Positions 3,768 through 20,640 of a stretch of 64,000 nt of DNA are shown here, in pieces. The stretch covers positions 410 through 64,409 of the forward strand of contig CAMYKS010000005.1 of assembly GCA_947259115.1 (NCBI GenBank), given 5' to 3'. The stretch is from an uncultured Desulfobulbaceae bacterium. GTDB taxonomy: Bacteria; Desulfobacterota; Desulfobulbia; Desulfobulbales; BM004. Below the pieces are notes generated by a model, which had not been told where the DNA came from, searched no databases, and saw nothing but the letters and a program-made list of their open reading frames with translations. Every line of letters starts with the position of its first letter. The first letter of the stretch is position 1. Both the position numbers and the translations under genes were made by a program.

Positions 3768-3997
3768 CACTCCAGAAATACTCAAGTTATTATTTAGCGT
3801 TTATTTCTTTTCATTAAGATGATAAATACCTAGCCAGGATTAAGGCTCAACGGCCAAGCACAAGAATGTGCATTTCACAACAGCAGGAAAAACATATAGT
3901 TTCATACGGCATACTGCTCTTCAGAAAAACCGTTGAAATCTCCTGTGAACAGAATTTTTCCATGGAAACAATATACCCTTTAGGAAACTAAATACAT

Positions 3998-5767
3998 ATG
4001 CAAGAAACAACTCAAGACAAATCCCAGGCAACCCTCGGCAACGTACGTGACCTGCAATATGCAAAAATCATGATAATTGACGATGAGCCCATCACCCTGG
4101 ATATGGTCCAGATTTATCTCGAGGAGGCAGGTTACAGCAATTTCGTCCTGGTCGAAAAATCCACTGAGGCAATGCAGCAGATCGAAGAGAACGGGCCGGA
4201 CATCCTGCTGCTCGACCTTATGATGCCCGAGGTATCCGGGTATGATATTCTGGCGCAAGTGCGCGAGCATCCTAAGCTGCGATACCTGCCTGTCATCGTC
4301 CTTACAGCGGCAACCGATACTGAGAGCAAACTGCGCGCCCTGGATCTCGGCGCCACGGACTTTCTGGCCAAACCTGTGGACCCCAGTGAATTGAGCCTGC
4401 GTGTGCGCAACACCATAGCGGCCAAGGCATATCTTGACCAGCTCGCCTATTACGATTCCGTCACCAGCCTGCCCAACAGAAAAATGTTTATTGAGCTTTT
4501 TGACAATGCCCTGAAAAAGGCCAAACGATTTACTGAAAAACTGGCCCTGCTGAATATCGAGTTGGATCATTTTGACCGTATTAACGACACCATGGGGATC
4601 AGTGCCGGGGATGAAGTGCTGCGCCAGATCACACACCGCATAGAAAATGCAGTCCGGGATGTTGACCTGCTGGGACCCTCCATTATCAAAGATGACACGC
4701 TTATCGACCTGTTCAGGATTGAAGGTCCCGTTTTTTCGCTGCTCCTGTACAGGATAAGTGAGGCGGGCAACGGCGCCAGTGTTTCGAACCGCTTACTGGA
4801 AGATATCCGCAAGCCTGTATCCGTTGCCGGCAACGATGTGTACGTTACGGCAAGCATCGGCATTACAACATATCCTGACGAGGGTAAAAGCACTGAAGAG
4901 CTGCTGCGCCTGGCTTCAAGTGCCAAGGATTTTGCAAAAAACAAGGGCGGCGACACATTCCAGTTTTCCTCCGCTGAAATCAACGCAACCTATGAAAAGC
5001 GGCACAGTATGGAATCCAGGCTCAGAAAGGCTTTAGCCCGGGAGGAACTCGTGCTGTTCTATCAACCGAAGGTGAATGTTGCCCATAACACCATTGATGG
5101 GGTTGAAGCGCTGGTCCGCTGGGACAGCAGCCAGGGACTTGTTTCGCCCTTGGATTTTATACCAATTGCCGAGGAAACCGGGCTCATTATTCCATTCGGT
5201 GAGTGGATTTTAACCGAAGCCTGCAGCCAGTTAAAAAAATGGCACCAGGAAGGTAAAAGCGGCATCACCATGGCCGTTAACTTATCAGCTAAACAGTTTG
5301 CAGACCCGGATTTTTTTACTACGGTGCAACGGATTGTATCCCAAAGCGGCATTGAGCCCCGGTTTTTGAAACTGGAACTGACCGAAAGCCTGTTGCTGGG
5401 CGACATCGAAAGCAAGATCATTATCCTGCAGGACCTGAAGGACATGGGCCTCAAGATTTCCGTTGATGATTTCGGCACCGGTTACTCTTCACTCAGTTAT
5501 CTCAGCAAGCTTCCGGTGGATGAGTTGAAGATCGATAAATCCTTTATCGATAATGTGTCTGATCAAGCGGACAGCCGTGCCATAGTATCCACCATAATAT
5601 ACCTGGCCCGCAACCTGGGGTTGCAGACCGTTGCCGAAGGCATAGAAACTACGGACCAGCTCAATTACCTGAAACAGGAGGGATGTGACCAGTACCAGGG
5701 ATACCTGTTCAGCAAGCCCGTTTCTAGCTCAGATTTCTCTGAACTTTTCGCTTCATTACAAAAATAA
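3998..5767 (+). CDS. Response regulator, REC - degenerate GGDEF - EAL (likely c-di-GMP phosphodiesterase)
   Basis: REC: IMIIDDEP...LLLDLMMPEVSG...VLTA...DFLAKP. GGDEF position reads FRIEGPVFSLLL (EGPVF instead of GGDEF). EAL signature residues are intact: EALVRW, NLSAKQ, ELTES, DDFGTGYSSL, KIDKSF, EGIET, QGYLFSKP. Confidence 0.9.
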   Translation: MQETTQDKSQATLGNVRDLQYAKIMIIDDEPITLDMVQIYLEEAGYSNFVLVEKSTEAMQQIEENGPDILLLDLMMPEVSGYDILAQVREHPKLRYLPVIVLTAATDTESKLRALDLGATDFLAKPVDPSELSLRVRNTIAAKAYLDQLAYYDSVTSLPNRKMFIELFDNALKKAKRFTEKLALLNIELDHFDRINDTMGISAGDEVLRQITHRIENAVRDVDLLGPSIIKDDTLIDLFRIEGPVFSLLLYRISEAGNGASVSNRLLEDIRKPVSVAGNDVYVTASIGITTYPDEGKSTEELLRLASSAKDFAKNKGGDTFQFSSAEINATYEKRHSMESRLRKALAREELVLFYQPKVNVAHNTIDGVEALVRWDSSQGLVSPLDFIPIAEETGLIIPFGEWILTEACSQLKKWHQEGKSGITMAVNLSAKQFADPDFFTTVQRIVSQSGIEPRFLKLELTESLLLGDIESKIIILQDLKDMGLKISVDDFGTGYSSLSYLSKLPVDELKIDKSFIDNVSDQADSRAIVSTIIYLARNLGLQTVAEGIETTDQLNYLKQEGCDQYQGYLFSKPVSSSDFSELFASLQK

Positions 5768-5785
5768 ACGCAGGAGAGAACAGAT

Positions 5786-7531
5786 TTGCAAAACATATCA
5801 GCAGGAAACAAAAACGGTCATGCTGTCTTGGCCCCTGTTATCATGTTGGTCGATGATGAAATCACAACCCTGGAGATGATAGAAGCCTATCTTGAGAATG
5901 CAGGCTACAGCGAATTGGTTCTGGTGAGTGATCCCACAGAGGCTATAGACGTCCTTGAAGAAAGAGACCCGGATATTCTCCTGCTCGACCTTATCATGCC
6001 CAGGGTATCAGGTCTTGATATTTTGGCTGCATTAAGAAAAAAACCGAAATTCAAGCATCTGCCCATCATTATTTTAACTGCTTCCTCAGACCCACAGGAT
6101 AAAATCAAGGCCCTGGACCTGGGCGCTACAGATTTTCTGGCCAAGCCGGTGGACCCGACAGAACTGGCATTGCGCATTCGTAATACTGCAGCTGCCAAGT
6201 CTTACCTGGATTACCTCGCATTTTATGACAGCCTCACCGACCTGCCAAACAAGTCCTTGTTCCTTGACAGTTTTGACTGGGCCCTCAGGAAAGCGAAACG
6301 CTACAATGAGAAATTGGCCGTTTTGAATATCTCTTTGGATGATTTTGATAAAATCAATGCAACGGCTGGAAACGCAGCAGCTGACCAAATCCTGCAGCAG
6401 GTTTCCCTCCGAATTAAACAGGCGGTCAGGGATACAGATGTGCTTGGACCATCCATTAAGGTTAAAGCTTTTAAGCAGATGAATCTTTTCCGCGTGGAGG
6501 GCAGCTCTTTTTCCCTGCTTCTGGATCGTATCCACGGTGCTGAAAATGCAGCAATTGTGGCCAACCGTATCATTATGGCAATAAGAGAGCCTTTCAGTGT
6601 TGATGACAAAAATATTCACGTCAGGGCAAGTATCGGCATTGCAAACTATCCGGAAGACAGTGAAGAGCGGGACACATTGATTCATCTTGTCTGGGGTGCC
6701 AGGGATTATATCAGGAAAAAAGGCGGTGACTGTTTCCAGTTTTCAAATAGGTCCATCAACGACACATATGACAAAGAGCGTAATATTGAAAACATGCTGA
6801 GTGACGCCCTTGAAAGAGATGAGTTTGCGCTCAACTATCAGCCAAAGGTTGATATTGACTCCGGCATAATTACAGGAGTTGAAGCCTTGTTGCGCTGGGA
6901 AAGGGATGGGCGTTTCGTGCCGCCCGAAGACTTTGTTTCGGTTGCGGAACGAACGGGATTGATCATTCCCATCGGGGAGTGGATACTGAAGAAGGCGTTC
7001 CGTCAGCTGGCAGATTGGCACAAAGAGGGCATCATGATAGGTATGAGTGTCAATTTATCTGCCAAGCAACTGCAAAGCAGTGAATTCCATGATATTGTTG
7101 AAGATATAGTAAAGCACAGCAGAGTTGATCCTTTATATTTGACACTGGAAATCACCGAATCTCTCTTAATGGAGGACATTGAGCAGACAACAACGCTTCT
7201 GGAACGTTTCAAGGTCATGGGCCTTAAAGTATCCATCGATGATTTCGGCACCGGCTATTCATCATTGAACTATCTCAATCTTCTCCCTGTTGACGAGCTG
7301 AAGATCGATAGGTCCTTTATTAGCGAAATACCAGATAATGCAAAAAGAAATGCCATCGTCTCCACCATAATTTTTCTTTCAGAAAGTCTGGGTATACAGA
7401 CGGTTGCCGAAGGGGTTGAAAATGACAAGCAACTTCAGTTTCTCAAAAAAAATCGCTGTCATCAATACCAGGGGTATCTTTTCAGCCAACCTCTGACAAA
7501 CACTGAACTGTTAAATCTGATGAATAAATAA
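5786..7531 (+). CDS. Response regulator, REC - degenerate GGDEF - EAL (tandem paralog of 3998..5767)
   Basis: Same architecture as the upstream gene. GGDEF position reads FRVEGSSFSLLL. EAL motifs: EALLRW, NLSAKQ, EITES, DDFGTGYSSL, KIDRSF, EGVEN, QGYLFSQP. The start is a TTG preceded by AGGAGAG about 7 nt upstream, so it is less certain than the end. Confidence 0.85.
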   Translation: MQNISAGNKNGHAVLAPVIMLVDDEITTLEMIEAYLENAGYSELVLVSDPTEAIDVLEERDPDILLLDLIMPRVSGLDILAALRKKPKFKHLPIIILTASSDPQDKIKALDLGATDFLAKPVDPTELALRIRNTAAAKSYLDYLAFYDSLTDLPNKSLFLDSFDWALRKAKRYNEKLAVLNISLDDFDKINATAGNAAADQILQQVSLRIKQAVRDTDVLGPSIKVKAFKQMNLFRVEGSSFSLLLDRIHGAENAAIVANRIIMAIREPFSVDDKNIHVRASIGIANYPEDSEERDTLIHLVWGARDYIRKKGGDCFQFSNRSINDTYDKERNIENMLSDALERDEFALNYQPKVDIDSGIITGVEALLRWERDGRFVPPEDFVSVAERTGLIIPIGEWILKKAFRQLADWHKEGIMIGMSVNLSAKQLQSSEFHDIVEDIVKHSRVDPLYLTLEITESLLMEDIEQTTTLLERFKVMGLKVSIDDFGTGYSSLNYLNLLPVDELKIDRSFISEIPDNAKRNAIVSTIIFLSESLGIQTVAEGVENDKQLQFLKKNRCHQYQGYLFSQPLTNTELLNLMNK

Positions 7532-7588
7532 CCCCCTGCTTCGAAACCGGATTACCGGCTTCTCATGACTGCCGTGCGTTTGCAATAA

Positions 7589-7931
7589 ATCGTGCAAATC
7601 TCCATTGGTCTGCCCGACCTCAACAACACTGCCGAATTTCCCCTTGAACTGTTTCACGTTGATATTGGCTGCTTTGCTTTGCTGGTCGGGCCGCTGCAAA
7701 GCCCTGATAAAGCAGAAGCCCTGGCCAATCTCATTGTCGAAGGAAATAAAAAAACCGCTGCAACTTAGTACCTGGAAAATCACCTTTACGGCAAGTATAG
7801 GAATTACCGTTTACCTCTCCAGCGCTACCGATCACGTAATGTTATGGCGCCAGGCATCAGGCTCTAAGAATCATGTAAAGAAGAATAATGGCGATAATTA
7901 CATTGTATACTCCCCTGAGAGCAGCGTTTAG
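7589..7931 (+). pseudogene. Frameshifted, internally deleted remnant of a GGDEF-type domain (decayed third paralog)
   Basis: One frame gives ...GLPDLNNTAEFPLELFHVDIGCFALLVGPLQSPDKAEALANLIVEGNKKTAAT-stop. Compare LTDLPNK... and LFRVEGSSFSLLL in the neighbours. After a +1 shift near 7765 the next frame gives ITFTASIGITVY...KKNNGDNYIVYSPE-stop (compare VTASIGITTYP...AKNKGGDTFQFSS). No REC or EAL part is present. Confidence 0.5.
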
Positions 7932-7957
7932 ATAATATGGAAGCTGATGGGGATGGT

Positions 7958-10036
7958 TCAATTTTTCTGCATGATCCCAAAATCCTCGAGGATCGTGCCT
8001 TTGGCCCATTTCAGTTTCAACATGGAGATGTTGTAGTTTGATATTGACCTGATATATGTGCGGTAGGCGAAGTAGTAATCATCCTGGGCGTCAAGAAGGG
8101 AATGGATATTTACCTGCCTGATCTCAAAACGGGATTTCTCCCTTGATAAAAGCCTGTGATTGGCTTGCCGCGAATTTCCCGTGGCCTCGATTTCTTTCGC
8201 CGACTGTTCAATTTCAGTGACTGAAGAATTTATCTGGAAGTTGATTTCCTCAGATATCTTGGCCAATGCCGCCTGTGACTGCTTTTCTTCATATACGACT
8301 TTCAGATAATCCGCTTCAGCTTTTCTCCCTCCGATGGGCCAGACAAACTCGAGACCAACCGCCCAGCTGTTATCATCACTGAAATATGTATCTTTAACAT
8401 CATCACTGAAATCTTCCCCCAGTGCATTGAAAGCATACATGGCCCTGGCATCAAGGGTCGGCAGCCTCATGTGCCTGGCAAGTTTCCTGTTTATTTCTGC
8501 TGCACTTACCCTGTTTTGGGCGATGCTATACTCCGGGCGCTTCAAAAGGGCTTCTTGCAGCAAGGCTGCCTTGTCCAATTCAACCTCTTTGCTGGACAAT
8601 CTCTCAGTCGGAATGATGGCAACATCCGCCCCGGCTGCCCCGGAGGCAAAGCCCAACAAGAGCTTTAACTGGTCCATTGCCAGTTTATAATCTGTGTTCG
8701 CTTTGATAAATATTGCTTTACGATCCTGCACGGAGGCAAGGGCCCGGTCGACATCCAGCAGGTCGGCAAGACCGCTTTCCTTGCGAAGGAGAAGTCTCTG
8801 GTAAATATCTTCCGCATCCTGCAGGTACTTGCGGCTGATACTTATCTGCTTGGCATAATAGACCAATCGCCAGTAATAGGTTCCCACTTCCCGCATGACG
8901 TTGGCCATGGTTTTGCGATATTCCATGCCGGAAACATTCAGGTTCAGGTCCGCAAGTTCCATGGCAGATCGATTAGTCGGATCGCCAAATTCCTTCAACA
9001 ATGCCTGCCGTAACTCCAGGGTAAGACGCGAGGTGTATTGTGGGTTAGGTATTACGAGATCACTGCTGCTATCCAGGTGGTCAACATCAAGGACGGAAAG
9101 CGATAATATGCCGCCGGTGGGCAACGGCTGTTTGATACCGGCCCGTGCGCCCCATCTATCTTCCACAAAACTGTCCGATTCCGTATCTCCCTCCCCAAGG
9201 TCAAGCTTGCTCTGTATGGGCCTGTCTGTTCTGGAAATATTACTTTCTGCAAAGAGAGAGGGGTCATAAACCGTGTGGGTTGATTTTTTTTCCTCTTCTG
9301 CAATTGGAGAAAGAAACGCTGCAACCTTGATATCAGGATTCTGATCAACAGCCACCCTGATCGCATCTTCAAGGCTTAATTTTATAGAGTTTCCGCCTGT
9401 TGGCAAAACATACACTTCAGTCATATCATCTTCATAAAGGCTTATACCTGCCTTTTGACCTGATACTTCTGCTGCAGCGGCCTCCTGCTGCTGAGACGCA
9501 GACACCACCTTCTCTGTTGCAACTTCTGCTGCATGCATTTGCTCTGCAGGTGCTGCAGCTTCTGTCTCAGGCCCCGTTTCCCGGCCCGGCTCTGCTGTCT
9601 GCAACATTTCAACGGCTGCATTATTAACTTTGTGGGGATCGGTCCTGACCTGTATAAAGTTGTACCCCCTGACTGCCAGCTTTTCCGTAATGGTTAGCAG
9701 ATCATCCCTGTTGGCTGCCCGTCCGAGACGCAGAGTATAGTAGCCGCTGTCTGTCTTGTAGACAAAAGCGTCCGGCTGCAGATCGCCGGGCAGGGCATCA
9801 TAAGCCCGCAGGGCTGCTGACTCGTAAACGTATGTATTAATCTGCAGGGAATACAGAACCGTCGGCAGTTCCGACCTGTCTGTCACATTGCTCTTTACTT
9901 CAGGCTGCCCGTATACACCGGCAAAACCAATTCCGGAATGGGCCAAAAGAAAAGCGGTCAGCAGGCAGTAAAAGAAAAAACGGGGGAATAACAGAGGTTT
10001 TTGCGACCTGCAGTTGCAGGTATTAATAAATTGCAT
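7958..10036 (-). CDS. TolC-family outer membrane channel with an N-terminal SPOR-like (peptidoglycan-binding) domain
   Basis: N-terminal signal-like hydrophobic region. Residues ~60-135, YSLQINTYVYESAALRAYDALPGDLQPDAFVYKTDSGYYTLRLGRAANRDDLLTITEKLAVRGYNFIQVRTD, fit the SPOR beta-alpha-beta-beta pattern (compare FtsN/DamX SPOR). An Ala/Glu linker follows, then ~470 aa typical of outer membrane efflux proteins (LSLEDAIRVAVDQNPDIKVA..., two coiled repeat halves). Confidence 0.75.
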   Translation of the reverse strand: MQFINTCNCRSQKPLLFPRFFFYCLLTAFLLAHSGIGFAGVYGQPEVKSNVTDRSELPTVLYSLQINTYVYESAALRAYDALPGDLQPDAFVYKTDSGYYTLRLGRAANRDDLLTITEKLAVRGYNFIQVRTDPHKVNNAAVEMLQTAEPGRETGPETEAAAPAEQMHAAEVATEKVVSASQQQEAAAAEVSGQKAGISLYEDDMTEVYVLPTGGNSIKLSLEDAIRVAVDQNPDIKVAAFLSPIAEEEKKSTHTVYDPSLFAESNISRTDRPIQSKLDLGEGDTESDSFVEDRWGARAGIKQPLPTGGILSLSVLDVDHLDSSSDLVIPNPQYTSRLTLELRQALLKEFGDPTNRSAMELADLNLNVSGMEYRKTMANVMREVGTYYWRLVYYAKQISISRKYLQDAEDIYQRLLLRKESGLADLLDVDRALASVQDRKAIFIKANTDYKLAMDQLKLLLGFASGAAGADVAIIPTERLSSKEVELDKAALLQEALLKRPEYSIAQNRVSAAEINRKLARHMRLPTLDARAMYAFNALGEDFSDDVKDTYFSDDNSWAVGLEFVWPIGGRKAEADYLKVVYEEKQSQAALAKISEEINFQINSSVTEIEQSAKEIEATGNSRQANHRLLSREKSRFEIRQVNIHSLLDAQDDYYFAYRTYIRSISNYNISMLKLKWAKGTILEDFGIMQKN

Positions 10037-10077
10037 TTTTGATACCCTACGTTTAGGAATGCCTTAAATTTTCTGTG

Positions 10078-10908
10078 TTACTCTTCTGACTTTTCCACAT
10101 CGGGAAAGGAAACGGTTACCCTCTCGCCGGCCGGCCGCTTGCCGGGGTTTGCTGCTATTACACTGATACGGAGTGTATTTGCTGCGGAATCCGCCACTGA
10201 CGCAATGTGGTCGATCTTTCCCTGCACCTCTTCTCCATCGGCAAATTTTATTACTGCTTGCTGGGTAACGGCCAATGATTTGGCATTGGATACCGGAACG
10301 GCAATATCGATCAGGAGCTCATTGATGTCAACTATGCGGATAACAGGCGCAAGGGCCTGTATGGATTCGCCTTTTTCAATTTTCACCTCTTCGACAATCC
10401 CATTGACAGGGCTCCTGATGTGAAGGTTGTTTAAAGCTGTTTTAAATTCCTTATGCTTCAACTGGTCCTGGGCGTGTTCAAACTCGGCCAGCTTTACCTC
10501 AAGCAGGGCGGTTTCGGCTGCCAGCCTTGCATGGTCAACCTCCCAGTCCGTAACAGCCCCGTTGCGATGGGCTTCCTCCATTTTCAGCAGGTCTTCTCTT
10601 TTCTGCAGGAATTCTGCCTGGCCTATCTTAATAATTGTCGTGTCATTGGCCTTGGCAGTTAACAACTGGTATTGAACCATTTCCACCTGCCCTTCCAAGC
10701 TGGCAAGTAGATCACCTACTGAGACGTGATGCCCTTCACTAACCGTCAATTTATCAACCTTGCCGTGCTGCACAAATGAAAGGCTGATATCCGCGCTGGG
10801 CTTGGTTATGGCTTCAACATCCAGCCCATGGGACAGGTGGGGTATGAAAAGAATGAACAACAGGGGGAGGGAAAAAATGGCAAGGTTTTTAAATGGGGCA
10901 GGCACCAT
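10078..10908 (-). CDS. Membrane-fusion protein / periplasmic adaptor (HlyD/RND-adaptor family)
   Basis: Start moved to the internal Met (MVPAPFKNLAIFSLPLLFILF), which has AAGGAA upstream. Contains a biotinyl/lipoyl-like hairpin (VSEGHHVSVGDLLASLE ... IRSPVNGIVEEVKIEKGESI), a coiled-coil and a beta-barrel. Lies 41 nt upstream of the TolC-like gene. Confidence 0.8.
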   Translation of the reverse strand: MVPAPFKNLAIFSLPLLFILFIPHLSHGLDVEAITKPSADISLSFVQHGKVDKLTVSEGHHVSVGDLLASLEGQVEMVQYQLLTAKANDTTIIKIGQAEFLQKREDLLKMEEAHRNGAVTDWEVDHARLAAETALLEVKLAEFEHAQDQLKHKEFKTALNNLHIRSPVNGIVEEVKIEKGESIQALAPVIRIVDINELLIDIAVPVSNAKSLAVTQQAVIKFADGEEVQGKIDHIASVADSAANTLRISVIAANPGKRPAGERVTVSFPDVEKSEE

Positions 10909-11175
10909 ATTATATTCCTTATTATATTGTTTTAATTGAAAATAGAGGACGATAACACTTTGAATCATTGAATAATTATGAGGATTTTTTCTGATTCCGA
11001 CCAATTTACAGAAATCTGATTTGCAGCCGGAAATTCATGGATCATGCAGCCAGATCAGCACATAAACACATTAAATATATAGTATTTTTGAAATAATTCC
11101 AACCATTAATATATAAATATTTCCTGCATGCTGCACTTTTCTGTCAGAAAAGGATGAATCTGATCAGCAAACGGG

Positions 11176-13167
11176 CTATTCGGATTTGCCTGAAAACGCC
11201 AGAGCGCTCTCCAGGGATTCATCAAGCTGCAGAAGCTCCTTGCGCATGCGGTAGTGTTTCCTTTCCAGGGAGCGCTGGGCCCGGCGCATTAAAAACCTGC
11301 AGAAGAGCAGATGAAGTTCACTGTTTCCACGGGCTGCCAGGCGCAGCAACATTCCGCCAAAGGTCTTTGCGAAAGGTTGCAATATCTCGTCATCCAGGGA
11401 TATATATGCTTCATGCGTGCCGGGATCGCCCTGGCGACCGCAGCGCCCGAAAAGCTGGCGGTCAATGCGCCTGGCGCTGTGCGGTTCCGTGCAAAGCACC
11501 TGCAGCCCACCCATATCTCTCACACCGGGTCCGAGCCTGATGTCCGTTCCCCGGCCGGCCATGTTGGTGGCAACGGTTATCTGTCCTTTGTCCCCTGCCC
11601 GGGCAATAACGGCGGCCTCATCTTTATCCTGCCGGGCATTCAGGACCTTATACTCCAGGCCGTTTTCGCTCAACAGACGGCTGATTTTCTCTGAAACGGT
11701 GACCGTTGGCGTGCCAATAAGCACGGGCCTGCCTTTACGGTTAAGTTCTTTAGCCCGCTGCACAACGGCGGACAATTTATTCTTCTCAGTCCTAAAATAG
11801 CGTTCGGGCAGTCCCCGGCGGATTAACGGCTTATTGGTCGGGATCCGGACAAATTTGAGGCCGTAAACCGTCCATAGTTCCCTAGCCACCTCACGTGCTG
11901 TGCCGGTCATTCCTGCCAGCATCTGATAACGCCTGAAAAAGCGCTGATAGCTTATCCTGGCAAGAGTTTCTTTCTGCGTAGAAATGGCGCAGTTCTCCTT
12001 GCACTCGATAAGCTGATGCAAACCCCTTTCCCATGAGCGGTCTGCCATGCGCCGCCCAGTGTATTCATCGATTATCTCAACCTTGTTGTCTTGCACCAGG
12101 TACTCTTTGTCTCTGTGAAAATGATGCAGAGCGACTAGTGCCATGTTTACCATTGCTTCACGCCGGCGCGAGGAAACCCAGAAGCCGCCGGCCGGGTTTG
12201 CCAGTGAGTCCAGGAAATCGCGACCTGCCTCGGTTAACTCAATGCTTTTGGCAGCCCTGTCGGAGCTGTAATGTTCAATGCTCTTGAGCTGTTTTGCAAA
12301 AGCCAGGGCCTGGACATAGGCCTTTTTTTCAAAGCTGCTGTCGCCTGCTCCGGAAATGATTAACGGGGTCCTGGCCTCATCTATCAGAACGGAGTCGGCC
12401 TCATCGATAATGGCAAAACAGAGCCCTCGCAGGATGAGGTCCTTCAAAGAACCGGCCGGGCCATAAAGTCTCTGCAACGAATAAGCAATGGGCCCGGGTT
12501 TCCGTCTGAGGCGCAGATGATCCTTCAGGTAATCAAAGACAATCTCTTTATTTGTGCAGTACACCACATCCTGCTGATACACTTTCCTCCGTTCAGCAGG
12601 AGACATATCATGGCGGATAACTCCAACACTTATACCCAGGGCTTCATAAATGGGCCCCATCCATGTTGCATCCCGCTCGGCAAGGTAATCGTTGACCGTA
12701 ATTATATGTACAGGTATGCCGGCAAGAGCGGCTGTACTGGCCGGCAATGTTGCGGTCAATGTCTTGCCCTCCCCGGTTTCCATCTCTGCAACCACACCAT
12801 TTAAGAGGGCATAGCCCCCGATGAGCTGCACATCATAATGCCTGGTGCCAAGGGTTCGTTCAGCCTGTTCGCTCACCAGAGCAAAGGCGCGGGCCGTGTT
12901 TGCAAGAGATATTCCTTCCTGCCGGAACTTTCTTCGCAACTCTGCGGCTTCGGTTTCCAATTGTCTCCCTTCGAATCTCCGGAATGCCGGGCTGAACTTA
13001 TTCACTTCTTCGATAATGGCATGAAAGCGCTCAAAGCTGGCGCCATAGCGGCTGAAAAGGTAGCCGGGATAATCATGCAGCAGGCTTTCAAATTGACTGC
13101 GAACCTCCGGGCTCCGCTCCGGATAAAAGCCGTATTTCTTTTCAAATAACATGGAATTACTAGACAT
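11176..13167 (-). CDS. SecA-like ATPase (motor domains retained, C-terminal third absent)
   Basis: Diagnostic SecA motifs: HYDVQLIGGYALLNGVVAEMETGEGKTLTATLPA, VHIITVNDYLAERDATWMGPIYEALGISVG, AIIDEADSVLIDEARTPLIISG, MLAGMTGTA, VATNMAGRGTDIRLG, GGLQVLCTEPHSARRIDRQLFGRCGRQGDPGTHEAYISLDDE. Only ~75 aa follow the last motif. The start is set at ATG 13167, which overlaps the upstream stop (ATGTCTAG); ATG 13152 is an alternative. Confidence 0.85.
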   Translation of the reverse strand: MSSNSMLFEKKYGFYPERSPEVRSQFESLLHDYPGYLFSRYGASFERFHAIIEEVNKFSPAFRRFEGRQLETEAAELRRKFRQEGISLANTARAFALVSEQAERTLGTRHYDVQLIGGYALLNGVVAEMETGEGKTLTATLPASTAALAGIPVHIITVNDYLAERDATWMGPIYEALGISVGVIRHDMSPAERRKVYQQDVVYCTNKEIVFDYLKDHLRLRRKPGPIAYSLQRLYGPAGSLKDLILRGLCFAIIDEADSVLIDEARTPLIISGAGDSSFEKKAYVQALAFAKQLKSIEHYSSDRAAKSIELTEAGRDFLDSLANPAGGFWVSSRRREAMVNMALVALHHFHRDKEYLVQDNKVEIIDEYTGRRMADRSWERGLHQLIECKENCAISTQKETLARISYQRFFRRYQMLAGMTGTAREVARELWTVYGLKFVRIPTNKPLIRRGLPERYFRTEKNKLSAVVQRAKELNRKGRPVLIGTPTVTVSEKISRLLSENGLEYKVLNARQDKDEAAVIARAGDKGQITVATNMAGRGTDIRLGPGVRDMGGLQVLCTEPHSARRIDRQLFGRCGRQGDPGTHEAYISLDDEILQPFAKTFGGMLLRLAARGNSELHLLFCRFLMRRAQRSLERKHYRMRKELLQLDESLESALAFSGKSE

Positions 13168-15307
13168 TAAAACGCTTGAGGAATAGTTGACGAACACTGC
13201 GATACCATTGAAATGCAAGGGGTTCATACCCATGGTCGAAGCGCACGTACACCCGGCTGCCGATATAGAACTTCTCCAATGGTTCGCCCATGGCTAAATC
13301 AAACTGGAAGTACCGTTCGAATGTTTTACTGCCGCTCCTGTCCAGGGGATCAACAGCGATACTGCCGCCGCCGGCAACCCCAAGGGCTGTACTTGGCAGG
13401 TGGTCAACCGCACCGGGAATTTCCCGCTCGACCTTTGCCGTATAGACCACATGCGGTTTCACTGAAAAACGTAATTCGACGCCCTCTGTTTTGCCCCGTA
13501 TCAAATCAATGTTTCTCTGCGGAACTACTACACGTATGATTGTTGCATCCTGTTTAAGGACATATCCCAGCAACTCTCCCTGTTCAATAAACCTGCCTTT
13601 CAGGTCAGCCGCCTGCGGCAGCACAAACATACCCTCTGCGGGACTTGTGATCAGCATCTCAGCAAGCCTTTCTTCGGCGCGGGACAGTCTCTCCCGGATG
13701 CCTATAATCTCTTCCTGCAGGATGGACGCCTGAACTTTATCCGTGGCGTATGCGGCATTATAGCGCAGCTCGTATTCCTTCAGCCGGGACTGGAAAATCT
13801 TTATCTGTGTGGACAGAAAGGGATCCCGGCACTCAATGAGAACTTCATTTTTTGCAACGTTACCATTTGCTTGCGCATGGATTTCTGCAACAATTCCGGC
13901 TGTGTTGGAGCGAACTTGCGCATCCTCGGGTACCCAGACAACCCCCTCGGTACGGGAATGATATGGGAACGGCAGCAGGAAGAGGAGCAGCAGCAGGCAG
14001 GTTATTACCGAGACAATAACCAGAATTATCCTGTTTCTGTTGGCCTGGTGAACAGGTGCGCTCAGCAGGGTCTGTATTTTTTTGTAAAGCGGCAGGATGA
14101 TGAACGAAAACCCTCCCCAAAGAGCCAAGAGTACTCCGAATATATAAAATTTACCGGCCACAAAGAGTATGATGGCCCCATAGATGAAAATCCGGTAGCA
14201 AAAGGAGGTAATTCCGTAAAAGAAGAGCCAGAAACGCTCCCCTGGGGCCATGTTGGGAGTTTCTATCCTGCTGTTCCCAAAGACATATCTGTTAATCAGA
14301 TAGCCGAGATATTGCATGCTGCGCTGGGCCAGGTTCGGGATATTCAGTAAATCGGCAAGAATATAATAGCCGTCATATCTGAGTAAAGGGTTGCCGTTGA
14401 AAAGCAGCGTGGAAACCCCGCCGATAAGAATGATGTTGTAGGCTGCTGCCCGCAGAAGACCGGGCTCCATGGAGAGCCAGATAAACATGGCAAATGACGC
14501 AAGCAGCATTTCAACAGCTATGCCGGCAGCGCCCACCGTTAGCCGCTGACGCCTCCGGGGAAAAACAGCTGATGAAGAGGCATCCACATAGGGAATCGGC
14601 ATAAAAACCAGAAACATGATCCCCATTTCATGCACTTCCCCGCCCCACCTCTTGACAGCATATCCGTGGCTTAATTCATGCAGGCCTTTGACGAAGGGAT
14701 ATATGATCAGCAATATGATAAGGTTGTCTTTAGCAAACACCCTGTCGGCCAGGTTTCTCGTCAGTTCATCCCAGTTGATCCCGGCCTGGACAAGCGCTGT
14801 CCCGATAATAAATACACAGAGCAGCAGGCCCGGCAAGGTATACACATACTTGACGTAACGCACTGTTCTTTCCAGAAACAGGTCGGGGTCAAGCAGAGGC
14901 AAACGGAAATAAAACGGGTTGGAAAATTTTACCTTCCTGGAGCTTTTTTCAGATTTTCGACTGCGCAACAGAAGCTCTCTGGTGTCGGGTTCCACATCGC
15001 ACAACAACACATCAGCCTCATAGAGGCGGCTGAGAAGCTGCACCATTTCCACCTGCGTGGGCGCATCATCGCTATACTCTTGCGAGACTTTCTCCCACAA
15101 CTTCTGGACGCTGTGCCTGCCGTTCATCATGCCGATCACCCTGTAGGCAATGGGGGTGAACCGAAAGACCTTGCCGGTGAGGTGGTCCTGCAGAACATAC
15201 CATAACTCGCCCCGGTATTGATGCCGGTGAATCTGTGCATGTACCTTGATCCGGGGTTTCAGGTGTGCGACTCTATACCATGAGGGACTGAATATCGTGT
15301 CTTGCAT
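13160..15307 (-). CDS. Polytopic membrane protein: M50/site-2-protease core fused to a C-terminal HlyD-type periplasmic adaptor domain
   Basis: HExxH in a TM helix (GLHELSHGYAVKRWGGEVHEMG) and the second S2P motif FNGNPLLRYDGYYILAD. About 8 hydrophobic helices lie between aa 165 and 445. The C-terminal ~270 aa have a lipoyl-like hairpin, coiled-coil and barrel (VRSNTAGIVAEIHAQANGNVAKNEVL...ITSPAEGMFV). The N-terminal ~110 aa are soluble. Confidence 0.8.
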   Translation of the reverse strand: MQDTIFSPSWYRVAHLKPRIKVHAQIHRHQYRGELWYVLQDHLTGKVFRFTPIAYRVIGMMNGRHSVQKLWEKVSQEYSDDAPTQVEMVQLLSRLYEADVLLCDVEPDTRELLLRSRKSEKSSRKVKFSNPFYFRLPLLDPDLFLERTVRYVKYVYTLPGLLLCVFIIGTALVQAGINWDELTRNLADRVFAKDNLIILLIIYPFVKGLHELSHGYAVKRWGGEVHEMGIMFLVFMPIPYVDASSSAVFPRRRQRLTVGAAGIAVEMLLASFAMFIWLSMEPGLLRAAAYNIILIGGVSTLLFNGNPLLRYDGYYILADLLNIPNLAQRSMQYLGYLINRYVFGNSRIETPNMAPGERFWLFFYGITSFCYRIFIYGAIILFVAGKFYIFGVLLALWGGFSFIILPLYKKIQTLLSAPVHQANRNRIILVIVSVITCLLLLLFLLPFPYHSRTEGVVWVPEDAQVRSNTAGIVAEIHAQANGNVAKNEVLIECRDPFLSTQIKIFQSRLKEYELRYNAAYATDKVQASILQEEIIGIRERLSRAEERLAEMLITSPAEGMFVLPQAADLKGRFIEQGELLGYVLKQDATIIRVVVPQRNIDLIRGKTEGVELRFSVKPHVVYTAKVEREIPGAVDHLPSTALGVAGGGSIAVDPLDRSGSKTFERYFQFDLAMGEPLEKFYIGSRVYVRFDHGYEPLAFQWYRSVRQLFLKRFNV

Positions 15308-15314
15308 CTTTGCT

Positions 15315-17183
15315 CTACGATATTTTTACCCAGAAACGGATGCGCATCCAATCAATAAGATCATGCATCCAGATCCAGATCAATTTACGGCGGGCCACAT
15401 GAATCTTTCCGTAGCCCTGCATTCCCGGCCTGAGCTTCTTTGAGTCCTGCAGGATACTGCCCTCCACAAGAAAGAAATTACTGCCCTCCCTGGTGGTTGT
15501 CACAGGTGTTATTTTTTCAACCGTAAAAGCATACGGACTGCCGGGCATGGCATTTAAAACAAGTTCTCCCTTCTGCCCAACTGCAACCTGATCAATGTCC
15601 CCCTCCGCAACTTCGAGCATGACCCTATAAGAGTCAAGCGGGGCAATCTGAAACAGGGTCTGCCCCCGCTCTATGGGAGCGCCGATGGATTGGCTCCAGT
15701 CGCCGCTGATAATTATGCCGTCAAAGGGTACGCTGATTTTGGCCCGGGCGATCTGCTCGTCCAGCAATGACACCTCGGATTCAGCCTGGCTCATCTGTTC
15801 CCGTATTATGTTGGACTCTGCGATCTCGTTCTTTGCCAGGGACTGGTTATATTCCAGGGCCAGCTGTTTTCGCTGGCTCGCCGACTTCAGACGCTTCAGC
15901 AGCAGGTCACGTGTATCCAGGCTGGCCAGAACTTGATCCTTGCTGACGATATCCCCAGCCCGGGCAGGGGCCTCATTGAGGTAACCGTCAAAAGGAGCAA
16001 TGACAGAACGCTGCACAGTGCCTTCCAGAACACTCGTTGCCGAAACCCGGTAATCGCCGCTGGCAACTGCAAAAAAAAGCAGCAGAGCGGCAAGGCAGCA
16101 GAACCCTAACTTCATAGCCGAATTTCCCGGACCGCAAAGCATGCGAAACCGCTCCGAGAGATGAAGCGCTGCTTTCCTGTAAAGGGGCAGATCATTCAAC
16201 TTTTTTGCTTTGAGGGTCGGACCGAGCAGGGCGGCAACCGCTTCACAGAGCAGAACCGTATTATTATCAAACGACTTCTCCGATATCCTTTCAAATGTAA
16301 GGGCCCCATAGCCTTCGTTGTCAACACCAAGAAAGGGGACCGTCAGAATGGACCGGGACCCGTGCATATTCTGCAGGACTCCATGGCAGCGTTGTATTGC
16401 ATCATCCTGTCCAGCAGCAGGGGGATACAGTATTGTTGTGCTCTGGTCAATGCTTTCATCCATGGCTTCCCCGATGGAACCGACCAGGTTCATTTTCCCG
16501 GCAAACTGGGCACTATGGGAAATGGCATCCACTTTGACCTGATTTTTTGCGCTGAATCCGATGCTGACACGTTCACACCCTAGACGGGTGGCAAGCTCGT
16601 TAACTGCAACTATTGCTGCGTCTTTAAACCTCTTCTCCTGGAGCACCGGAGCCATAACATCGAAAACCGTCATTAGGCGCTGTTGCAGCGTGTCGCCGGT
16701 CGCCCCCCCCTCAACACCATTGGTTTTATGTAAAAAAAGGCTCTCAAGCCATGCCGTACCCCACTGAATCTGGCCCATGGACATTTGCAGTTCCCGGTCA
16801 GAGGCTATCCGCAACTGAAAAACCACAACTCCCTGACGTTTTGTGCCGGCAGTGAACGGGCACCCGAGAAAAACAGATTTGCCTACATCTGCGCTGCAGT
16901 TTTTTATACCGGCTTCAAGCGAGGCAAAACATTTACCTTCCGACAGAACACGCAGAACAATTTCATCAAACCCGTCCAAGGGCTGGGGACTTTCCGGCCA
17001 GGAGGCGGCACGGGTGGGCCGGGAACCGGCTTTTGGGTCCAGATACACTGCAGCGCACTGGAGATCATGCATCATACTGCATTGAAGATTCAACCAGTTG
17101 CAGCAGAACTCCTCTTCCTTCCCAGAAGCATGAAGTTTTTGCCACATTGTCTTATTTGCAAATGAAAAATCGGCTGTATTCAT
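15315..17183 (-). CDS. GAF-like cytoplasmic domain(s) - TM - HlyD-family periplasmic adaptor fusion
   Basis: The N-terminal ~340 aa are soluble with GAF-like segments (my recognition, not verified). A single TM follows (LGFCCLAALLLFFAVASG). The HlyD-type adaptor comes next: VIAPFDGYLNEAPARAGDIVSKDQVLASLD, a coiled-coil, ISVPFDGIIISGDW, then a barrel. Its stop lies 7 nt from the start of the M50 fusion gene. Confidence 0.7.
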   Translation of the reverse strand: MNTADFSFANKTMWQKLHASGKEEEFCCNWLNLQCSMMHDLQCAAVYLDPKAGSRPTRAASWPESPQPLDGFDEIVLRVLSEGKCFASLEAGIKNCSADVGKSVFLGCPFTAGTKRQGVVVFQLRIASDRELQMSMGQIQWGTAWLESLFLHKTNGVEGGATGDTLQQRLMTVFDVMAPVLQEKRFKDAAIVAVNELATRLGCERVSIGFSAKNQVKVDAISHSAQFAGKMNLVGSIGEAMDESIDQSTTILYPPAAGQDDAIQRCHGVLQNMHGSRSILTVPFLGVDNEGYGALTFERISEKSFDNNTVLLCEAVAALLGPTLKAKKLNDLPLYRKAALHLSERFRMLCGPGNSAMKLGFCCLAALLLFFAVASGDYRVSATSVLEGTVQRSVIAPFDGYLNEAPARAGDIVSKDQVLASLDTRDLLLKRLKSASQRKQLALEYNQSLAKNEIAESNIIREQMSQAESEVSLLDEQIARAKISVPFDGIIISGDWSQSIGAPIERGQTLFQIAPLDSYRVMLEVAEGDIDQVAVGQKGELVLNAMPGSPYAFTVEKITPVTTTREGSNFFLVEGSILQDSKKLRPGMQGYGKIHVARRKLIWIWMHDLIDWMRIRFWVKIS

Positions 17184-17548
17184 CTTAAAAAAATTTTGCC
17201 CTGTAGGATTTTTCTATGACAGGCATAAGCAGTATTGTTGCAGGCCCAATAATTTTTTACTTCCAGTTCTGTAGATTCTGCTAGCGACACTCCCCTGGAA
17301 TCCATCCCCATATAACTTTTGGGGGAATATCACAAAGTTACAACAAAAAACAGCTTTTTGCTGCAATTCTGCAAAAACACTGCAAATTTTCTTATTTTCC
17401 CGGCACATAATATTGTCTAATCAAGCACTCATCATTAAAGAATATTCTTCATTTTTTCCATATACTCACTCCAACAGACATTTTTTTAATTTTTAATTAC
17501 ACAATTATATCAAATAGATAAATACAATTTATAGAAAAACCCTACAAA

Positions 17549-17564
17549 TGGCACACCCTTTGCT
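17549..17564 (+). promoter_or_regulatory. Sigma-54 (-24/-12) promoter
   Basis: TGGCACACCCTTTGCT matches the TGGCAC-N5-TTGCW consensus at every specified position. It lies 56 nt upstream of the ATG at 17620. Confidence 0.75.
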
Positions 17565-17619
17565 GAATACGCTATGGCAGTAGGGTTTACCTATCCAAAA
17601 CTTATAACTTAAAGAAGAG

Positions 17620-18438
17620 ATGAAAAACATGGATCTAAACAAAAAAACCATAGCAGTCTTGGGCTCATTGCTGATGAGCCTCGTTTTCGTTGTGCATGCC
17701 CACTCTGCAACTGTGCAGCGCTCAAATTTTATTGTGGCAAATCTTTCCTGCACTTCCTGCCTGGCGACTATAGAGACTGAGTTAAAAGGTATACCGGGCA
17801 CCCTGGGTATGGACGCCGACCTTCGCTCCGGCAGAGTAACCGTTGACCACCTGTCCTCTCTGGATTACGAAGAGATCGCTAAAACCATCAGCAATCTGGG
17901 CTATCCTGCCACTGCAGACTGGACTGCAACGGTCCCTGAACAGTCTACAAAGAAATTTGCCCCGCAAAGCCAATACCGCTCCGGTTGCTCCAGCGGAGGC
18001 TGCGGTAATGCAGGCGGCGACGGAGCAGGCCCGACGGCTTGGAAATCTCCCCCTGCCACCGGTACGGTCAACCGGACAACCATGCAGGTCAACAAACTTT
18101 CCTGTACGTCCTGCCTGAACAATATTGCTGCTGAACTGAGTAAACTCTCTGAAACTTATGGCATGAACGGCTATTTAAGCAGGGGAATTGTCCTGGTTGA
18201 CCATGAAGACTCACTGGAGAATAACAGGATCGCTGCAATCATCTCTGACCTCGGATATCCGGCAAGGGTTGTTTCAACCAACGAAATCCCGGCCCAAAAA
18301 GCTTTTACAAAAAACCCGCAGAGAGGTTCAGTAAAACAGCGAGGCAGGGGTTGCGGCTCCAAAGGCCCATGCAATGCAACATCAGCATCATGGCAGAAAT
18401 TATACAATCGTTACTTTACCCAGACAAATGCTAAATAG
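17620..18438 (+). CDS. Secreted protein with two HMA-like (heavy-metal-associated) domains and Cys-rich linkers
   Basis: Signal peptide MKNMDLNKKTIAVLGSLLMSLVFVVHAHSA. Two ~65-aa repeats each carry SCTSC (CxxC) at the HMA metal-loop position (VANLSCTSCLATIETELKGIPG; VNKLSCTSCLNNIAAELSKL), followed by ...GYPA. Linkers CSSGGCGNAGGDG and GRGCGSKGPCNA. Confidence 0.7.
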   Translation: MKNMDLNKKTIAVLGSLLMSLVFVVHAHSATVQRSNFIVANLSCTSCLATIETELKGIPGTLGMDADLRSGRVTVDHLSSLDYEEIAKTISNLGYPATADWTATVPEQSTKKFAPQSQYRSGCSSGGCGNAGGDGAGPTAWKSPPATGTVNRTTMQVNKLSCTSCLNNIAAELSKLSETYGMNGYLSRGIVLVDHEDSLENNRIAAIISDLGYPARVVSTNEIPAQKAFTKNPQRGSVKQRGRGCGSKGPCNATSASWQKLYNRYFTQTNAK

Positions 18439-18472
18439 ATATACAGCTCATAACCGATGGAGGTTTTTTAAG

Positions 18473-18964
18473 ATGGTAACTGTGAGAAAAAATTCATTTA
18501 AAATTACAATTTTTCTATTGTCCCTGGCAGCTTTAATTTTTAGTGGCTGTTCCAGTTCAACGGCCAGTAAAAGTGCTTTAACCGGCGGTCTCATCACACC
18601 GACCAACGGCAAGCTTGAAATCCCGGTTGCCGGTATCAGTGACGGTAAAGCCCATCATTTCCAGGTCAAGTCGGAGGACGGCTCCATGGTCACCTTTTTT
18701 GTACTCAAAAGTGCTGACGGTGTTCTCCGTGCTGCCATTGACGCCTGCGATGTCTGTTACCGCTCGGGTCTCGGATATTACCAGGAAGGGGACAAGATGG
18801 TCTGCAAGAACTGCGGTCAGAAATTTGCCTCCAACAAGATCAATGTCATCAAGGGCGGCTGTAACCCGGCCCCGCTGAACAGGGTTGTTGATGGTGACAC
18901 GTTGGTGATCCAGATGCGGGACATCAACATGAACAGCTGGTACATGAAATACCGCCAGTCTTAA
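18473..18964 (+). CDS. Lipoprotein with DUF2318-like Cys4 domain
   Basis: Start moved to MVTVRKNSFKITIFLLSLAALIFSGCSSS (lipobox FSGC, GGAGG upstream). Contains AAIDACDVCYRSGLGYYQEGDKMVCKNCGQKF...IKGGCNPAPL (CxxC...CxxC), which I recognise as the DUF2318-type pattern. Confidence 0.6.
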   Translation: MVTVRKNSFKITIFLLSLAALIFSGCSSSTASKSALTGGLITPTNGKLEIPVAGISDGKAHHFQVKSEDGSMVTFFVLKSADGVLRAAIDACDVCYRSGLGYYQEGDKMVCKNCGQKFASNKINVIKGGCNPAPLNRVVDGDTLVIQMRDINMNSWYMKYRQS

Positions 18965-19012
18965 TAGGATGCCTGAATAACAGACCGTTATAACGACATA
19001 AGGATCAGACTA

Positions 19013-19441
19013 ATGACCTACAATTTAGATAAATATAGGGATAAACGGGAAAAGGTGCTCGGGGTGAAAAAACGGGGCATCAGCTTCGGCACCATGGCCG
19101 GAATAGTCTCGCTGGTAATTATCCTTGGCTTAGGTGTTGTGGTGGTACCCAAGTCGATTGCCTACTTCAACACCAGGCACCTGGATGATGTCATTTATAA
19201 ACTGCAGAATGCCGAAAGCTGGACGCCGGAAACAATCACCGCCATCCAGCAGCTGGCAGGGGTTAAAAATGTTGAAACGGACAACAACAGCACAAGGATC
19301 ATTATTACCTTTGATAAATCAATAACCAATACCTATGACATTAACGCCTTCTTCAAACAGAGGGACATCCAGATAGTTCTGCTCAACCAGGTCGGTCATG
19401 CCCACAGGCTGCAGATCATGGAAAAAGAATCCAAGTTTTAA
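19013..19441 (+). CDS. Small membrane-anchored protein of unknown function (possible Cys-less HMA-like fold)
   Basis: One N-terminal TM (MAGIVSLVIILGLGVVVV). The C-terminal part, AGVKNVETDNNSTRIIITFDKSITNTYDINAFF, resembles a ferredoxin-like beta-alpha-beta domain without a CxxC. Packed tightly in the operon. Confidence 0.45.
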   Translation: MTYNLDKYRDKREKVLGVKKRGISFGTMAGIVSLVIILGLGVVVVPKSIAYFNTRHLDDVIYKLQNAESWTPETITAIQQLAGVKNVETDNNSTRIIITFDKSITNTYDINAFFKQRDIQIVLLNQVGHAHRLQIMEKESKF

Positions 19442-19451
19442 GGATAACACG

Positions 19452-20609: not shown

Positions 20610-20640
20610 TGATTTTTATTCAATAAAATAGGATTGCACC

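Follow-up and report, generated by a model that had tools for sequence, protein, structure and literature searches.

The short SecA gene and its reading frame

The window analyzed here is a stretch of 64 kb from an uncultured Desulfobulbaceae bacterium. Its gene of main interest (11176..13167, minus strand) encodes a short homolog of SecA of 663 aa, which consists, according to translation, Pfam and AlphaFold2, of the nucleotide-binding domains NBD1 and NBD2, a preprotein cross-linking domain (PPXD) and one scaffold helix. The gene belongs to an operon on the same strand (17183..7958) that also encodes periplasmic adaptor proteins, one of them fused to an M50-type protease, and a TolC-family outer-membrane protein. 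All coordinates of operon features given below refer to the minus strand.

The short SecA is read from an open reading frame (ORF) of 685 codons (11176..13233), identified as a SecA homolog by translation, in which the ATG at 13167 is Met23. An earlier note on this DNA had placed the start at this ATG. We retain it as the right start, because the homologs of the family are about 663 aa long, because their alignment begins at this Met, and because the ATG lies within a conserved 8-nt overlap with the upstream gene. The database contains more than 120 homologs with 53–82% identity, nearly all of them 663 aa in length; the nearest named homolog, with 77% identity, comes from a Desulfobulbales metagenome-assembled genome. 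The public gene call (P0001, 658 aa) begins at the second Met (13152, minus strand) instead of at 13167, the position that yields the family-typical 663 aa.

The nucleotide-binding motifs, described as intact in the earlier note, are all present at coordinates that we checked, and most of their residues are invariant in an alignment of 54 family sequences, on which all conservation values for the short SecA are based. The Walker A motif GEGKT is located at 12760..12774 (G132, E133, G134, K135 and T136 invariant) and the Walker B or DEAD motif at 12394..12405 (D255, E256 and D258 invariant); E. coli SecA has DEVD at the latter position. MTGTA follows at 11896-11910. The motifs of NBD2 (11419..11568) comprise TNMAGRGTDI (11539-11568) and, in the arginine-finger region, RIDRQLFGRCGRQGDPG (11419-11469); R539, G540, T541, D542, R567-Q571, R575 and R578 are invariant in this domain. 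Transmembrane prediction finds no hydrophobic segment in the short SecA, and the protein is therefore predicted to be soluble.

Domain architecture of the short SecA

The Pfam analysis assigns SecA_DEAD (1e-106), SecA_PP_bind (1e-25) and P-loop_SecA (1e-52) to the protein; SecA_SW (PF07516) was not found by the same search. The PPXD (12004..12327, coordinates checked) is a full-length match to PF01043 with 90 bits. Upstream of the region that aligns to canonical SecA lies the family-specific N-terminal motif GFYPER (residues 13-18; 13114..13131), in which P16 is invariant and Y15 and E17 are conserved in at least 90% of the sequences; the pairwise alignment with E. coli SecA begins at query residue 39. 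Just before the DEAD motif, NBD1 contains an insert of 19 residues (12457..12513), which is visible as a gap at query residues 219-237 in the pairwise alignment and as a gap in the PDB alignment, and is not present in E. coli or B. subtilis SecA. The confidence of the structural model is low in this insert (predicted local distance difference test, pLDDT, 56–59); its residues P224 and G225 are at least 90% conserved.

The last structural element, as assigned by DSSP on the AlphaFold2 model, is a single long helix belonging to the helical scaffold domain (HSD) (residues 617-658; 11194..11319). This helix aligns to residues 601-650 and beyond of E. coli SecA and to the HSD helix of C. difficile SecA2. 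The chain ends with the tail LAFSGKSE (11179..11202), of which A657, F658, G660 and E663 are invariant; the stop codon comes next, at 11176-11178. In the short SecA 69 residues follow the motif YISLDDE, compared with 309 after the equivalent YLSMED in E. coli SecA; the earlier note had put the first figure somewhat too high, at about 75, and the second, at about 300, close to the count.

The homology to longer SecA proteins runs up to this helix. The pairwise alignment with E. coli SecA covers residues 12-650 with 42% identity, and the alignment with B. subtilis SecA, taken from the PDB sequences, covers residues 15-604 and ends at about 604-607. In a multiple alignment, 116 out of 145 short forms end at residue 665 of E. 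coli SecA; the window protein itself ends at about residue 663-665. The alignment with C. difficile SecA2 starts at residue 17 and stops at about 610-620. In that protein the HSD helix spans K578-N625, the wing domain 626-705 and the two-helix finger 706-781 (PMC7503281). Because the alignment stops at about this point, the short SecA lacks equivalents of the wing domain, the two-helix finger and the C-terminal tail.

A structural comparison of the kind proposed in the earlier note leads to the same picture. The AlphaFold2 model (pLDDT 82.5, predicted template modeling score 0.77) has a SecA fold, with B. subtilis SecA (1tf5, E = 8e-55) as the best Foldseek match and other SecA crystal structures, including SecA-N68, among the matches, and its C-terminal end is the single helix 617-658. 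Two claims of the earlier note thus hold: after NBD2 the model contains one helix, where the alignments end, so that the remainder is the first long scaffold helix only; and the helical wing domain, the two-helix finger and the Zn-binding tail are absent, as indicated by the missing SecA_SW match and the early end of the alignments. What the short SecA retains is NBD1, PPXD, NBD2 and almost the entire first scaffold helix; nothing follows. It is the two-helix finger that canonical SecA inserts into the SecY channel.

A protein about 240 residues shorter than E. coli SecA could also be the product of a truncated pseudogene of the housekeeping secA. However, the end point is shared throughout the family. 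Among 80 loci fetched from contigs of one genome per species, 71 contain an uncut copy, and all 71, from many phyla, stop within one residue of the C-terminus of the window protein and carry LAF[SAT]GxxE. When 1.84 billion cluster representatives were searched, the best 150 matches included about 145 distinct clusters at 50% identity with lengths of 645–690 aa, and canonical SecAs with SecA_SW turn up only near 500 bits. The more than 120 close homologs of about 663 aa and the invariance of all catalytic motifs are equally at odds with a pseudogene. Finally, the 266-nt spacer downstream (10909-11175) is AT-rich and non-coding, precedes the next adaptor gene and contains no frameshifted SecA remnant, as the earlier note had seen. 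The end point common to 71 of 71 copies, the invariant motifs and the lack of a downstream remnant rule this explanation out, and we assign it a practically negligible probability.

In a few genomes, whose loci are referred to by our locus numbers here and below, the short SecA is fragmented, interrupted by a run of N or shortened (L022 11988-14096, L055 12152-13726, L070 12123-13580). These copies may be decaying genes or assembly problems.

Candidate partner proteins encoded in the operon

The gene directly upstream of the short SecA encodes its candidate partner, a fusion protein of 715 aa (13160..15307; Pfam: PqqD, Peptidase_M50, HlyD_3). This protein combines an N-terminal PqqD-like peptide-binding domain, a multi-pass core resembling site-2 proteases and a C-terminal periplasmic adaptor with an alpha-hairpin. 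The PqqD match extends over residues 37-100, where the AlphaFold2 model (pLDDT 81) has a small N-terminal alpha/beta domain; the model continues with a multi-helix membrane core, in agreement with the predicted transmembrane segments, and with a C-terminal part for which Foldseek returns the hairpin-bearing adaptors MexA, MacA and AcrA. The motifs HExxH (H210, E211, H214) and NxxPxxxxDG (N304, P307, D312, G313) are invariant in 35 sequences and lie within predicted helices. Since the Peptidase_M50 score of 25.0 bits falls below the Pfam gathering cut-off of 27.2, we regard the protein as a divergent M50 relative. Its best NCBIfam matches, daptide_HExxH (153.9 bits, cut-off 300) and YydH/LiaK (31.3 bits, cut-off 225), are likewise below their cut-offs.

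The two genes share the 8 nt ATGTCTAG (13160..13167, sequence and coordinates checked), so that the start of the short SecA gene is contained in the last codons and the stop of the M50-adaptor gene. The earlier note had spoken of a translationally coupled M50 fusion upstream, and an overlap of the form ATG/GTG-TCT-GA/AG is indeed kept in 61 of the 80 related loci; judged by its sequence, the overlap is one of translational coupling.

Upstream of the fusion lies the gene of a GAF-adaptor of 622 aa (15315..17183; Pfam: GAF, HlyD_3, HlyD_D23), for which about 355 cytoplasmic residues that include the GAF domain, a single transmembrane helix (356-374) and an adaptor domain in the periplasm are predicted. 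Downstream of the short SecA, the operon continues with a small periplasmic adaptor of 276 aa (10078..10908), which scores above the cut-off of NCBIfam RND_mfp (102.9 versus 94.9 bits) and matches Pfam HlyD_D23 and HlyD_3; its ATG at 10908 is preceded by an AAGGA ribosome-binding site, and the protein has an N-terminal signal or anchor. The last gene encodes a TolC-family outer-membrane protein of 692 aa (7958..10036; Pfam OEP, 4e-34, two repeats), with an NCBIfam type_I_sec_TolC score of 86.6 bits that remains under the cut-off. No ABC transporter gene was found in the window operon, and none is conserved with the family across the cassette loci; there is no secY gene in the cassette, and no second SecA gene within the window.

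At its N-terminus, the TolC-family protein is extended by about 230 residues, as is the 693-aa form in the relative L088. Within this extension, at 9653-9856, there is a weak match to the peptidoglycan-binding SPOR domain (19 bits versus a cut-off of 21, E = 0.002). Such a SPOR-like extension is unusual in an outer-membrane duct protein.

Conservation of the cassette across bacteria

In one scan, the short SecA was confirmed in at least 550 species. Essentially all 80 loci, and six metagenomic loci in addition, have the gene order GAF-adaptor, M50-adaptor, short SecA, adaptor; they belong to Alpha-, Beta- and Gammaproteobacteria, Desulfobacterota, Nitrospirota, Acidobacteriota, Omnitrophota, Myxococcota, Rokubacteria and Methylomirabilia. 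The GAF-adaptor gene is situated directly upstream of the M50 gene in 79 out of 83 loci, and the small adaptor is present in 58.

Two additional gene families accompany the cassette. In about 30 of the 80 loci, a gene for a DUF3467 protein of about 100–120 aa is located directly upstream of the GAF-adaptor gene (for example L001 5602-5910, L003 5564-5905, L004 4439-4777 and L090 14599-14904). DUF3467 may be a cargo chaperone; a profile search against the PDB sequences gave no meaningful match, and sequence profiles connect it neither with SecB nor with any solved structure. Another 12 loci in all contain a gene of the SapC family (L005 14589-15332, L048 12218-13072, L054 12185-12982, L092 18911-19732 and 8 more), five of which have it between the M50-adaptor and the short SecA, where it breaks the usual overlap. 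The family takes its name from a gene in the S-layer type I secretion operon of Campylobacter.

The cassette is also found on rhizobial and roseobacter megaplasmids, a location that fits a horizontal spread. Cultured bacteria that have it include Mesorhizobium ciceri R30 (on a plasmid, LRP29_RS31435-31460), Methylobacterium extorquens AM1 (META1p2399-2402), Marinobacterium mangrovicola DSM 27697 and Bradyrhizobium sp. DOA9. In four plasmid records (NZ_CP088148.1, NZ_CP049813.1, NZ_CP085155.1 and NZ_AP022333.1), the short SecA is annotated as 'DEAD/DEAH box helicase', 'prepilin peptidase' or 'hypothetical protein', and the M50 fusion as 'hypothetical protein', 'PqqD family peptide modification chaperone' or 'site-2 protease family protein'.

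Giant proteins encoded next to the cassette

Large genes are frequent in the vicinity of the cassette: of 52 flanks of 10 kb on each side, 27 upstream and 9 downstream contain ORFs of at least 1300 aa, and these ORFs bear domains of the RTX, PKD, dockerin and LamG types. On annotated plasmids, the cassette is immediately preceded by a gene for a protein of 10,518 aa in Mesorhizobium ciceri R30, 10,603 aa in Pontibrevibacter and 12,918 aa in Pseudosulfitobacter (giant genes at L090 1-14540, L091 1-15692 and L092 1-14753; N-termini in L093, L094 and L095). Two of these three giants are annotated as 'LEPR-XLL domain-containing protein', and the NCBIfam model NF012209 (LEPR-XLL) matches all three N-termini on which it was run; each has a basic stretch followed by (L/M)EPRxLLSAD. 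With a strict regular expression, LEPR-XLL was detected at the start of the adjacent large ORF in 8 further loci (L006, L022, L024, L025, L052, L054, L065 and L077). The LEPR-XLL giants are likely the cargo of the cassette, and the motif its leader signal. No paper linking LEPR-XLL or DUF3467 to a SecA/M50/TolC cassette was found in the searchable literature; the adjacency of the cassette to LEPR-XLL giants of up to about 12,900 aa, often together with a DUF3467 or SapC-family gene, is new in this analysis.

For the window's own genome, a different cargo has to be considered, namely a small leader-bearing peptide of the ribosomally synthesized and post-translationally modified (RiPP) type in place of a giant protein. 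Neither the window nor the surroundings of the cassette in L088 contain a giant or LEPR-XLL gene, the M50 fusion carries a PqqD-type domain, and the NCBIfam families it resembles most are intramembrane proteases of RiPP maturation (154 bits for daptide_HExxH, followed by YydH/LiaK). These scores are, however, far below the cut-offs of 300 and 225, neither a RiPP-modifying enzyme nor a plausible precursor ORF is encoded next to the operon, and across the family the association is with giant proteins. We judge a RiPP-like cargo in this genome to be quite improbable.

Genomic neighborhood of the operon

At 903-7531, the plus strand codes for a hybrid histidine kinase that contains an Hpt domain and for two REC-GGDEF-EAL proteins. 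On the other side of the operon, also on the plus strand and hence opposite to it, lies a cluster (17620-21354). It encodes a secreted protein with one Pfam match to HMA (heavy-metal-associated) and, by eye, another CxxC segment like it, two membrane proteins, one an FtrD-like Fe-S protein and the other of 142 aa, and the permease and ATPase of a MacB-type ABC pair (19398-21354). The cluster is common to the relative L088, with 77% identity, which shares the window neighborhood; it is not conserved with the cassette elsewhere, and the ABC pair is common only to this close relative. L088 has an extra REC-GGDEF gene upstream of the operon (L088 4116-5687), where the window has only a spacer of 436 nt (17184-17619). 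Rfam gave no match at E <= 1 across 7000-19000, and scans for promoters and terminators returned counts at the shuffle background.

The GAF domain and the flanking cyclic di-GMP enzymes suggest that secretion is regulated. They also fit a regulatory device of another kind, in which the short SecA would act as an unfoldase that feeds the active site of the M50 protein; the outcome would be ATP-dependent intramembrane proteolysis for maturation or signaling, with translocation driven otherwise, e.g. by the proton-motive force. The invariant M50 catalytic residues, the fusion of a PqqD-like recognition domain to the protease and the absence of every SecY-insertion element from the short SecA are compatible with this explanation. 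On the other hand, an operon with three adaptors and a TolC-family protein speaks for export, as does the linkage of the cassette to giant proteins of extracellular type. An unfoldase role of this kind is therefore unlikely in our view.

Relation to known SecA proteins and secretion systems

The family has been described before. Kamneva, Poudel and Ward (PLoS One 2015) reported 'secondary SecA_DEAD domain proteins' without SecA_SW, encoded in a conserved locus with Peptidase_M50/HlyD, GAF/HlyD, HlyD and sometimes OEP genes, and proposed a type-I-like system in which the SecA-like protein serves as ATPase and the M50 protein as membrane component (PMC4452313). The window protein shares with this family SecA_DEAD and PP_bind, the loss of SecA_SW and the same neighbors, and is a further member of it, probably from Desulfobulbales. 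The family, the locus and the idea were thus already published, by computer analysis, and the finding in the window is a rediscovery. The earlier sample comprised a few genomes of Planctomycetes, Verrucomicrobia, Proteobacteria, Nitrospirae as well as Chlorobi; a cargo was not named, and the PqqD-like domain, DUF3467, SapC, the LEPR-XLL giants, the fixed C-terminus and the 8-nt overlap are not mentioned there (PMC4452313). We found no experimental follow-up on the family in the literature.

With canonical SecA of E. coli and B. subtilis, the short SecA shares the fold and the ATPase motifs, at 40–42% identity over NBD1, PPXD, NBD2 and the first scaffold helix. It differs in the loss of about 240 residues with the wing domain, the two-helix finger (IRA1) and the SEC-C tail, and in the additional 19-aa NBD1 insert, GFYPER and LAFSGxxE. 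The canonical NCBIfam models remain below their cut-offs (PRK12904, 633.6 versus 814; TIGR00963, 627.1 versus 800), and so do those of SecA2 (TIGR03714, 495 versus 930; TIGR04221, 448 versus 725; TIGR04397, 560 versus 1085; NF012136, 418 versus 1100). The SecA2 proteins of Gram-positive bacteria and mycobacteria are comparable in that they, too, are second, specialized SecA paralogs for a dedicated set of cargo. However, SecA2 retains the two-helix finger and the scaffold bundle, acts with SecY or SecY2, and is found in another gene context.

The SecA2 comparison leads to the explanation that the short SecA is an accessory SecA2-like ATPase on the housekeeping SecYEG, which would bring cargo or components of the apparatus to the periplasm, from where the adaptors and TolC would complete a two-step export. 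The identity of about 40% to canonical SecAs extends over NBD1, PPXD, NBD2 and the scaffold helix; in SecA-SecY structures, the surfaces in contact with SecY include PPXD and the long scaffold helix, and the wing domain of mycobacterial SecA2 is reduced as well (PMC7503281). Against this stand the complete absence of the SecY-inserting two-helix finger and of the wing domain, the scores of all SecA2 models far under their cut-offs, the tight and conserved coupling to the M50 gene, and the adjacent giants, which bear LEPR-XLL and no obvious Sec signal peptide. We consider a role on SecYEG improbable.

The closest counterpart in domain content is an engineered one. SecA-N68 of E. coli is described as the motor with PPXD after deletion of the helical domains at the C-terminus (PMC5603524). 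Its structure (PDB: 5k9t) has nearly the same set of domains as the short SecA, with a Foldseek TM-score of 0.75 on the target; the natural protein differs in retaining the long scaffold helix and in being evolutionarily conserved. Karamanou and colleagues reportedly found in 1999 that the ATPase activity of N68 is deregulated and elevated owing to the missing IRA1.

SecA DEAD and preprotein-binding domains without scaffold and wing were also reported by West-Roberts et al. inside giant proteins of Omnitrophota and Actinobacteria, with a proposed role in giant-protein export (bioRxiv 10.1101/2023.11.21.568195). In those proteins the SecA-like part is highly divergent and fused into the giant, whereas in the window it is a free-standing protein of 663 aa from a separate cassette. 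With type I secretion systems and peptidase-containing ABC exporters (HlyBD-TolC), the cassette shares the combination of adaptor and TolC-family duct, the logic of protease, ATPase and adaptor, and the giant RTX-repeat proteins, which are the likely cargo in relatives. Those systems differ in possessing an ABC transporter, the place of which is taken in the cassette by a SecA-derived ATPase and an M50-type protease as membrane component; moreover, the candidate signal of the cassette cargo is N-terminal (LEPR-XLL), in contrast to the C-terminal signal of type I secretion.

A proposed export route

Judged from sequence, predicted structure and gene context, the cassette probably exports giant surface proteins. 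We hold it to be rather probable that the short SecA is the cytoplasmic ATPase motor of an envelope-spanning, type-I-like secretion apparatus without an ABC transporter. An intact SecA-type DEAD motor with a PPXD is present, and therefore the polypeptide clamp between PPXD and NBD2 can form. According to this model, the motor would dock on the cytoplasmic face of an assembly of M50-adaptor and GAF-adaptor instead of on SecY, possibly through the scaffold helix, which is exposed, and the GFYPER and LAFSGxxE termini specific to the family. With the unfolded cargo gripped in the clamp, cycles of ATP hydrolysis would move the chain into the inner-membrane assembly, from which it would pass through the adaptor ring and the TolC-like duct across periplasm and outer membrane in one step. 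An N-terminal leader would be recognized by the PqqD-like domain and cleaved at the M50 site, with the cut in the LEPR-XLL giants predicted to fall right behind LEPRxLLSA. In relatives, the cargo would most likely be the adjacent giant repeat protein with its N-terminal LEPR-XLL, and in the window's genome the cargo gene would lie outside the window. In canonical SecA, the region of IRA1 and the two-helix finger is reported to restrain the ATPase (Karamanou 1999); if so, the activity of the short SecA must be regulated by a partner.

The earlier note had argued against canonical SecYEG coupling and for a different membrane partner, most obviously the M50 fusion. The recurrent gene order and the overlap in 61 of 80 loci speak for such a partner; a physical coupling to the M50 protein and the lack of one to SecYEG are suggested by the gene context.

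Several points weigh against the proposed route. The contact between short SecA and M50 fusion is read from gene context alone, and M50 proteases are not known to form protein-conducting channels. The absence of the two-helix finger leaves the transmission of force to be explained. Within the window, no cargo gene was detected by tblastn with the giants of relatives or by regular expressions for RTX and LEPR-XLL, and tblastn found neither a DUF3467 nor a SapC gene. Furthermore, a neighbor-joining tree did not separate short from canonical SecAs (148 sequences, of which only 3 are canonical, with a few C-termini misplaced by MAFFT), and the median identity is 0.42 among short forms and 0.41 between short forms and the 3 canonical sequences. 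The shared end point and the terminal motifs would nevertheless argue for a common origin of the short SecAs, and a published maximum-likelihood tree supports a secondary SecA_DEAD clade (Kamneva 2015, PMC4452313).

In its most extensive form, which we put forward tentatively as a possibility of somewhat less than even probability, the model describes a distinct class of double-membrane secretion. A SecA-derived motor would replace the ABC transporter; the LEPR-XLL leader on giants of about 10,000 aa or more would be read by the PqqD-like domain and cut by the M50 protease; the chain would be threaded, N-terminus first, via M50-adaptor, GAF-adaptor and adaptor ring into the TolC-like duct, with DUF3467 or SapC as cargo chaperones.

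In the usual view, SecA is a motor dedicated to the SecYEG channel. The family analyzed here is a widespread SecA paralog, with at least 550 species, that has shed every SecY-inserting element and whose gene is tied to a protease-adaptor fusion and a TolC duct. The link to LEPR-XLL provides a concrete and testable cargo hypothesis, and since cultured rhizobia, roseobacters and methylotrophs carry the cassette, this hypothesis can be tested directly. If the model is true, the SecA motor would have been re-used for a second, one-step export route, and an export route would be suggested for proteins of about 10,000 aa or larger that bear the so far unexplained LEPR-XLL motif.

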